From: Escherichia phage ekra
Strand: one strand, 5' to 3'
Sequence record: MN850644.1
DNA length: 64,000 nt
The notes under the pieces were generated by a model. The model made no database searches. It was given only the letters and a program-made list of their open reading frames with translations, and was not told the origin of the DNA. Both the position numbers and the translations under genes were made by a program. How positions within the stretch are numbered: position 1 is the first letter of the stretch; the number at the start of each line of letters is the position of its first letter. This document shows, one piece after another, positions 43,390 through 43,955 of the stretch.

Positions 43390-43642
43390 ACTATGTTCAG
43401 TACAGTCATTCTGTTTATACTGGTTGTCTTTGTATTGTCATACGTTGCAAGTAAGCTTTTGGACACATCTTTTGCAATGGGTGTCTTGTTTACAATCTTT
43501 TGTTTCGTGACACATATAGCTATCAGAACTTTTTTATAAAAAGTTGTTGACATAGAAAATTTGGTGAGTATACTGAGCAGCATAAACCAACGGGTACTCA
43601 CCAACATCACTTAAGAGTCTTTGAAAAGGGTTTTTTAAGTGA

Positions 43643-43704
43643 TGTGGGGCGAGGCTCGGTGAGGTGGGGTAAGGCATAGTGCGGTGCTGTTTGGTATGGG
43701 TAGT
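43643..43704 (+). repeat. Tandem GGTNN pentamer array A1 (about 12 units) ending in GGTATGGGTAG
   Basis: 5-bp periodicity of GG read directly. Confidence 0.7.
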
Positions 43705-43773
43705 TAGTCTCAGCTACATTAAAATGAGACTTACCTTTTTAAAAGGTCTTTAAACAGGGTCTTTTAATAAGGT

Positions 43774-43866
43774 TGTGTGATGTGATGTATGGTGCTGTGG
43801 AGTTTGGTTAGGTCCGGTCAGGTATGGTATGGTGATGTGAGGTATGGGTGGATGGTAGTAGCCACG
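43774..43866 (+). repeat. Tandem GGTNN-type pentamer array A2
   Basis: 5-bp periodicity read directly. Confidence 0.6.
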
Positions 43867-43955
43867 TTAAAAATCTACCAAGTTTCTAAAGAGTCTTCTG
43901 TTGAGGGTTCTTTACAAACAACTTAACAATCAACTAAAGTGTGGAGCTAAATGCT

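Follow-up and report, generated by a model that had tools for sequence, protein, structure and literature searches.

The pentamer-repeat region upstream of vipr in Escherichia phage ekra as a very probable guide-RNA cluster of type II VIPR

The window analysed here, a whole 64,000-nucleotide stretch of DNA from Escherichia phage ekra (MN850644.1), is a Felixounavirus genome, and the region under study is 99.9% identical to that of the Escherichia phages Barry, Tribble and Andreotti. When the two strands of the window were scanned with a cut-off of at least five in-phase GGT per 60 nt, a strict 5-nt GGT register was found at five places only, all on the + strand, a pattern far beyond chance. 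Two of these arrays make up cluster A (43639-43699 and 43768-43847). The gap that holds cluster A is 417 bp long; a 48-aa ORF behind the DNA ligase gene borders it on one side and a 195-aa ORF on the other. The other three make up cluster B, within 45047-45375 (tracts 45047-45116, 45183-45248 and 45316-45375), ~1.1 kb downstream and beyond the 195-aa ORF and a 146-aa ORF. The features of the locus are as follows, with vrRNA standing for the candidate guide RNAs.

43547-43574, + strand: P1, sigma-70-type promoter upstream of cluster A (TTGACA-16-TATACT, 11/12 matches)
43561-43604, + strand: inverted repeat over the -10 element of P1, TTGGTGAGTA (43561-43570) and TACTCACCAA (43595-43604), arms of 10 nt, 100% complementary
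43601-43648, + strand: hairpin SL1 type 1, whose apical part carries the box GAGTCTTTGAAAAGGGTT (arms of 14 nt with 93% complementarity; folded)
43639-43699, + strand: repeat tract of vrRNA A1, 12 DGY-NN units (in-phase GGT scan, guide match)
43700-43735, + strand: 3' tail of vrRNA A1, hairpin AGTCTCA (43706-43712) / TGAGACT (43725-43731) (inverted-repeat search, covariation)
43733-43773, + strand: SL1 type 2, the duplicated aaaaggtctttaa / agggtcttttaa box (13-nt arms, 92% complementary)
43768-43847, + strand: repeat tract of vrRNA A2, 16 DGY-NN units (in-phase GGT scan)
43848-43879, + strand: 3' tail of vrRNA A2, hairpin GGTAG (43854-43858) / CTACC (43875-43879) (covariation)
43882-43919, + strand: SL1 type 3, a third copy with no array behind it, directly upstream of vipr (11-nt arms, 91% complementary)
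43956-44543, + strand: vipr, 195-aa protein with a predicted RAMP fold (191/195 identical to PDB 36pp_D)
44546-44986, + strand: vap1, accessory gene, 146 aa (99-100% identical to the neighbour of vipr in phiSUSP1, locus L084, and at other loci)
44998-45013, + strand: terminator-like hairpin after vap1, AGCCTCTTCGGAGGCT plus T-run (canonical terminator form)
45011-45152, + strand: vrRNA B1, SL1 45011-45054, tract 45047-45116 (14 units), tail hairpin TAATCGGA/TTCGATTA
45148-45284, + strand: vrRNA B2, SL1 45148-45190, tract 45183-45248 (13 units), tail hairpin AGTCTCA/TGAGACT
45281-45408, + strand: vrRNA B3, SL1 45281-45322, tract 45316-45375 (12 units), tail hairpin GGCAG/CTGCC, pseudoknot AAGG/CCTT

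An earlier note on this DNA had singled out cluster A, and everything that it described is there. GG recurs every 5 bp over at least 10 units in both arrays (12 and 16 units), each array ends in GGTATGGGT(A/G)G, a hairpin follows each (AGTCTCA/TGAGACT, 43706-43731; GGTAG/CTACC, 43854-43879), the duplicated box lies at 43733-43773 and is also a 13-nt inverted repeat, and the upstream inverted repeat is present. The array limits that it gave (43643-43704 and 43774-43866) were about right, although they include parts of the tails. It was also correct that a 5-nt period is non-coding and that arrays and hairpins belong to one repeated architecture. The note missed both the partner role of the adjacent 195-aa gene and the second cluster. 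Of the checks that it had proposed, the comparison of related phages showed the periodicity in 82 arrays and covariation of the tail hairpin and pseudoknot.

The comparison set comprised 35 homologous loci from related phages, which yielded 82 distinct arrays and 1017 units. The conserved unit is N1 N2 D3 G4 Y5, more than GG alone. Across the 1017 units G4 is kept at 96%, T5 at 88% (C at 10%; T5 and C5 together reach 99%) and G3 at 80% (T 13%, A 7%, C 0%); N1 and N2 are near-free, at ~0.1 bit each. In 78 of the 82 arrays the tract has the same length modulo 5, indels are nearly always multiples of 5, and local 5- and 10-nt duplications occur within arrays, for example GTCAGGTCAGGTCAGGT. Between phages the flanks are near-invariant and the tract is hypervariable in both sequence and length (50-101 nt). 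Felixounavirus loci carry from one module (EC6, Si3) to six, and related genera have none, only the promoter and leader. GenBank records of relatives label these repeats only 'DR_4', 'repeat_region' or, in the KhF3 record, 'possible binding site of StbAB', Rfam has no family for the region either at the gathering threshold or at E<=10, and the genome papers of Felix O1 and wV8 leave the repeats unmentioned. A tRNA/tmRNA scan found none in the window and none beside the arrays of other phages.

Each module has the same anatomy, in which a long hairpin (SL1, 11-14-nt arms) is followed by the pentamer tract and by a hairpin tail of ~35-40 nt. In the A1 tail, GTAG (43700-43703) pairs with CTAC (43714-43717) in the hairpin loop, a pseudoknot that matches the published tail; in the A2 tail, GTGG (43848-43851) pairs likewise with CCAC (43862-43865) in the loop. 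The tail hairpin and the 4-bp pseudoknot helix covary across tail types, with four hairpin stems and three pseudoknot stems: AGUCUCA/UGAGACU with GUAG/CUAC, UGGUAG/CUACCA with GUGG/CCAC, UGGCAG/CUGCCA with AAGG/CCUU, and UAAUCGGA/UUCGAUUA with GUAG/CUAC. A reading of the tail hairpins as intrinsic terminators was rejected, as a T-run follows one tail type only.

SL1 stands before every vrRNA and before vipr (43601-43648, 43733-43773, 43882-43919, 45011-45054, 45148-45190 and 45281-45322). Its apical stem GUCUU/AGGGU is invariant and rich in G.U, and three paralogue types have differing yet complementary basal stems. The 3' arm of type 1 extends into the first repeat units of A1, and type 2 folds into a stem of 12 bp plus 5 bp, G.U pairs among them. 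Because the stem is rich in G.U pairs, SL1 can form in the + strand RNA only. A boxA/Nus antitermination signal, suggested by GGTCTTTAA when set against the rrn boxA, was dropped because a stable stem encloses this motif. Other ideas that were discarded before the link to the protein was made are a CspB-like GTCTTTG motif, sigma-dependent pausing, T7-type primase sites, Chi-like decoys and pairing with tRNA CCA ends.

P1 is annotated as a promoter in phage AYO145A as well, and it would drive vrRNA cluster A. The inverted repeat TTGGTGAGTA/TACTCACCAA that covers its -10 element probably lies outside the VIPR system: in relatives that have no VIPR (loci L023-L025), the arms at the same place differ in sequence and keep their complementarity. 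These are the pairs GGTGAGTA/TACTCACC, TAGTGGGT/ACCCACTA, CATAGCAAGT/ACTTGCTATG and CTGACGGGT/ACCCGTCAG, which remain complementary despite change (L023 ~4700-4755, L024 ~4620-4675, L025 ~4775-4830). Inverted repeats at 43561-43604 and 45408-45454 bracket or overlap the -10/-35 elements of both early promoters, which hints at a structured leader in read-through transcripts. Further downstream, the T-run of the vap1 terminator also serves the SL1 that comes next as its 5' arm. As this terminator precedes cluster B, the three downstream vrRNAs would need read-through or a start signal of their own.

The identity of the region follows from the protein encoded beside it. Pfam and PHROGs searches assigned no function to the two flanking ORFs. 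The 195-aa ORF is, however, identical at 191 of 195 positions (98%, E 2e-128) to PDB 36pp_D, the 'SUSP1 Vipr protein'; 36pp is one solved structure that was matched both by a family profile and by the protein alone. The AF2 model of the window protein (pLDDT 95) has Csm3/Cas7 as its best PDB folds, and on this model Vipr has a RAMP fold. Members of the Vipr family are ~190 aa long, lack a Pfam domain and share a conserved motif. The published RNA- and DNA-contact residues H17, K33, R138, D177, W178 and R179 are all kept at the same positions in the window Vipr; among 35 family members H17, K33, R138 and R179 are invariant or nearly so, and D177 and W178 vary in a few.

Arrays and protein also keep company elsewhere. 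A blind DNA scan of IMG/VR with the pattern (GGTNN)x6, in which no protein search was involved, returned more than 120 loci, many of them in unrelated phages with degenerate arrays. By tblastn, a Vipr homologue (25-36% identical, mostly beside the arrays) was found in 19 of 31 non-Felixounavirus loci with degenerate arrays, and in none of 57 plain-microsatellite loci from the same scan. Vipr proteins at least 90% identical to that of the window occur in 117 phage records only, and 230-275 records match the region.

The first accounts of VIPR (Viral Interference Programmable Repeat) date from April 2026 and are two preprints, one on the system (bioRxiv 10.64898/2026.04.26.720920) and one on its structures (10.64898/2026.04.26.720927). 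Vipr of SUSP1 is a minimal RAMP protein, and the intergenic regions around vipr-vap1 yield vrRNAs of ~100 nt that co-purify with it (10.64898/2026.04.26.720920). Each vrRNA has 9-16 YNNGG repeats and an invariant tail of ~40 nt with a hairpin and a pseudoknot (10.64898/2026.04.26.720920). The NN bases of the guide read double-stranded DNA with one base skipped (xNN) and no PAM, binding silences transcription, and reprogramming of NN changes which DNA is silenced (10.64898/2026.04.26.720920). Expression, association with Vipr and silencing were established by small-RNA sequencing, pull-down, and GFP or phage assays, and guides of the SUSP1 clade are aimed mostly at an E. coli satellite phage (10.64898/2026.04.26.720920). 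Cryo-EM revealed a right-handed filament with one protomer per repeat and the 3' end capped by the pseudoknot, in which H17, D177, R138, W178 and R179 hold the flipped-out GGY and K33 touches the backbone beside the skipped base (10.64898/2026.04.26.720927).

We therefore regard it as very probable that this region, with its two vrRNA genes, is the guide-RNA cluster upstream of vipr in a phiSUSP1-clade type II VIPR system carried by a Felixounavirus. The system as such is already known, though only recently and from preprints. Likeness to phiSUSP1 extends to Vipr (98% identical), vap1 (99-100%), the same GGY/NN unit and tail types, a locus between the ligase gene and downstream early genes, and the same E. 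coli satellite family as target. The two differ in their guide sequences and in module number, phiSUSP1 (contig L022/L084) having one vrRNA upstream and three downstream, four in total as published, against two upstream and five in total here; there is no difference in kind. The earlier note had not recognised the architecture as a known promoter, origin or packaging signal, and it is none of these; since VIPR was first described in April 2026, not naming it was reasonable.

The guides themselves provide a further line of evidence. A BLAST search of the locus against complete E. coli genomes found vrRNA-like sequences in 134 chromosomes. One such match lies inside an ~11 kb element with genes for a large serine recombinase, baseplate and tape-measure proteins, an HNH endonuclease and a Dam-type methylase; this element matches the published satellite. 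The satellite family is present in 545 of 5426 complete E. coli genomes (loci L157 9514-20862 and L158-L165), among them that of strain A7 (NZ_CP028767.1 1852457-1863805). It occupies at least three integration sites (beside wrbA, tonB/yciI and yecD/DUF72), with a different recombinase type at each.

The five guides of the window were scored against ten fetched loci with skips of 0 to 3 bases, and the best sites lay in the satellite loci L157-L165. The published threshold for a guide-target match is 80%. Guide A1 has the dinucleotides GA GG GA TC GA GG AA AT GC GC TT followed by an invariant final AT; with one base skipped it matches the satellite recombinase gene at 21/22 positions (0.95), and its xNN-encoded site in satellite locus L162 is GATGGAGAAGCAGAGGGGAAGATTGCAGCGTT. 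B2 (23/24, 0.96) and B1 (22/26, 0.85) also match the recombinase gene at skip 1, and B3 (20/22, 0.91) matches upstream of a satellite gene. The best skip-1 match of A2, 23/30 (0.77) in the recombinase gene among the ten variants sampled, is under the published threshold; its units 3-12 match at 19/20, and its full score of 23 only just exceeds the maximum of 22 for permuted guides; a target of A2 in this gene is only probable. An exact search of IMG/VR for the 10-unit A2 target pattern gave 0 matches. The four sites in the recombinase gene are in frame, and the skipped base is codon position 3 (wobble).

Against the satellite loci, other skip rules gave the window guides at most 0.77, and permuted guides reached at most 18-22 matches. 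The same register emerges from the wider set: of 79 Felixounavirus guides, 56 match at 80% or more at skip 1, against 0, 2 and 2 at skips 0, 2 and 3, and no permuted guide does. A search for self-targets at skip 1 in the 64 kb window found none, with best scores of 0.60-0.77. From these matches and the near-identity to SUSP1 we infer that the targets here are the ~11 kb E. coli satellite and that four of the five guides are aimed at its large serine recombinase gene. Presumably this phage uses VIPR to silence a parasite of its own infection.

A vrRNA of ~13 units also stands on the chromosome of E. coli O111:H- 11128 (locus L156 14985-15080; NC_013364.1 ~1605879-1605955). It has a TTGATG/TATAAT promoter of its own, and its tail stem (GTCG/CGAC) differs from that of the phage tail by compensatory changes. 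The annotation shows no vipr gene in the 15 kb to its left or right.

How the system would work in this phage can be carried over from SUSP1. Each module would be transcribed into a vrRNA of ~100 nt, whose 3' end a hairpin and pseudoknot tail would cap. Vipr (43956-44543) would bind one protomer per pentamer and so build a helical filament, in which the protein would hold the flipped-out GGY and present the two variable bases for pairing. The filament would then read double-stranded DNA in the pattern NN-x-NN-x, passing over one target base in each unit and needing no PAM, and binding would lead to an R-loop triplex and a block of transcription. For this phage, expression, RNA ends, Vipr loading, filament assembly and silencing are assumed; expression and silencing are so because its Vipr is 98% identical to that of SUSP1.

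A close parallel is Class 1 CRISPR, in which Cas7/Csm3 on crRNA likewise has a RAMP fold and places one protomer per fixed step of RNA, a thumb flips bases out periodically, and the variable guide has a conserved structured handle as its cap. Unlike it, VIPR has a gapped guide that pairs through 2 of 5 RNA bases and passes over 1 of 3 target bases, and it lacks a repeat-spacer array; no cas1/cas2 are reported for VIPR loci. As described in the preprints, type II VIPR further departs from CRISPR in being phage-encoded, in having no PAM or nuclease, and in transcriptional silencing as its outcome. A CRISPR-Cas array proper was rejected for the window, as the variable parts are (NNGGT)n tracts and not unique contiguous spacers. 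Pfam and PHROGs gave no match to cas1/cas2 among the neighbouring ORFs.

Four other explanations of the arrays were weighed. In the first, they are (GGNNN)n two-tetrad G-quadruplexes of DNA or RNA that regulate transcription or replication, an idea that the earlier note had raised along with a placing of alternate units on one DNA helix face. The sequence is formally compatible, having GG each 5 nt over 12-16 units. The unit statistics support neither idea: T5 (88%) is held more tightly than G3 (80%), above the first G of the supposed tetrads, and TG or AG replaces GG in 20% of units. A quadruplex explains neither of these facts, nor does it predict target information in the NN positions. Further, in the cryo-EM structures each GGY is held base by base in Vipr (10.64898/2026.04.26.720927), flipped out rather than stacked in tetrads. 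We consider a quadruplex role very improbable.

A second explanation would make the arrays a protein sponge or attenuator RNA, with a TRAP-like ring that reads one triplet per 5 nt and with uninformative NN. On the Bacillus trp leader, TRAP binds 11 G/UAG triplets with uninformative spacers of 2-3 nt as a closed 11-mer ring on its own mRNA. The geometry is the same, namely a conserved triplet plus a 2-nt free spacer in a 5-nt register, 10-20 units on the sense strand only, and an oligomer with one subunit per repeat; in the SUSP1 cryo-EM structures, too, one protomer is bound per repeat. What differs is the partner and the spacer. VIPR forms an open helical RAMP filament, not a ring, its triplet is GGY and not (G/U)AG, and its spacers are the guide, as NN match satellite genes at 85-96% in the xNN register only. 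No TRAP homologue was found by Pfam and PHROGs among seven ORFs beside the arrays. A sponge is about as improbable as the quadruplex.

Still less credible is a replication origin, recombination hotspot or partition site, variants of which include an R-loop-prone G-rich tract after a promoter as in T4 oriF, clusters of primase sites, and StbA-type iterons, as the KhF3 record would have it with its 'possible binding site of StbAB'. The region does lie among replication genes (polymerase, ligase) and behind a strong promoter. Against such a role, close relatives have anything from 0 to 6 modules and related genera have none, the hairpins rely on G.U pairs and form in + strand RNA only, the physical genome ends lie elsewhere, and the guide-target matches have no place in it. 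GC skew is uninformative here because it follows the direction of transcription. A packaging end was rejected for the region because the terminal repeats of UAB_Phi87 lie near the homologue of wV8 gp055.

Finally, a functionless pentanucleotide microsatellite kept by slippage has next to no probability: it would fit the local 5-/10-nt duplications and the indels in multiples of 5, but drift would wear GGT down like NN, yet GGT is kept at 80-96% with NN near random, the flanks are near-invariant, true microsatellites stand beside vipr in 0 of 57 cases, and the target matches count against it.

With the arrays read as VIPR guide RNAs, SL1 stands out as a further element. We infer that it is a processing (maturation) signal or a start/promoter signal of the vrRNAs. 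The accessible text of the VIPR preprint contains no discussion of it, and the G.U-rich SL1 before each vrRNA and vipr may be a hitherto undescribed maturation signal of type II arrays. SL1 is missing before the satellite's own vrRNA (locus L156), where a sigma-70 promoter stands instead.

At this site, between two promoters, about half of the Felixounavirus genomes lack vipr-vap but retain one or two orphan vrRNAs (L005 1281-1390, EC6; L006 1281-1400, Si3; L010 4709-4990, SP116-type; L014, L017, L028 and L032-L035). Some orphan guides match the E. coli satellite at 0.92-0.93 (L010). This pattern suggests either deletion by recombination between flanking repeats or supply of Vipr in trans. That orphan guides stay functional by borrowing Vipr from a co-infecting phage or a resident element is a tentative idea, which we think rather unlikely; if it were true, the satellite's own vrRNAs, which lack vipr, would need the same.

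Further variation is seen outside Felixounavirus. In other contigs with Vipr homologues, a tRNA-like minihelix with a 7-bp acceptor-like stem and a T-arm (GGTTCGATTCC) follows the tract instead of the SUSP1-type tail (L045 822-900, L078, L061, L105 4895-4950 and 5039-5100, L114 6124-6176). ARAGORN called no tRNA at these loci; the minihelix could be a handle for processing by RNase P or RNase Z. A 190 kb contig (L074 10099-14025, L070-L073) holds at least nine arrays, each ending in a strong hairpin and T-run, and very long tracts of up to 47 units occur elsewhere; loci of this multi-array or long-tract group include L068 4863-7396, L048 530-764 and L155 1071-1742. Several of them gave no tblastn match to the window Vipr and may represent more distant VIPR types.

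VIPR is a new and very compact form of RNA-guided DNA recognition, with a gapped guide that uses 2 of 5 bases, no PAM and a protein of ~20 kDa, and CRISPR effector complexes have been proposed to descend from it as their viral ancestor. VIPR loci can be found without a protein search, by the simple DNA pattern (GGTNN)x6 in which NN varies. For this phage, two 'hypothetical proteins' and two unannotated intergenic regions would become a defined anti-satellite weapon, the likely target of which is the integrase gene of the satellite.
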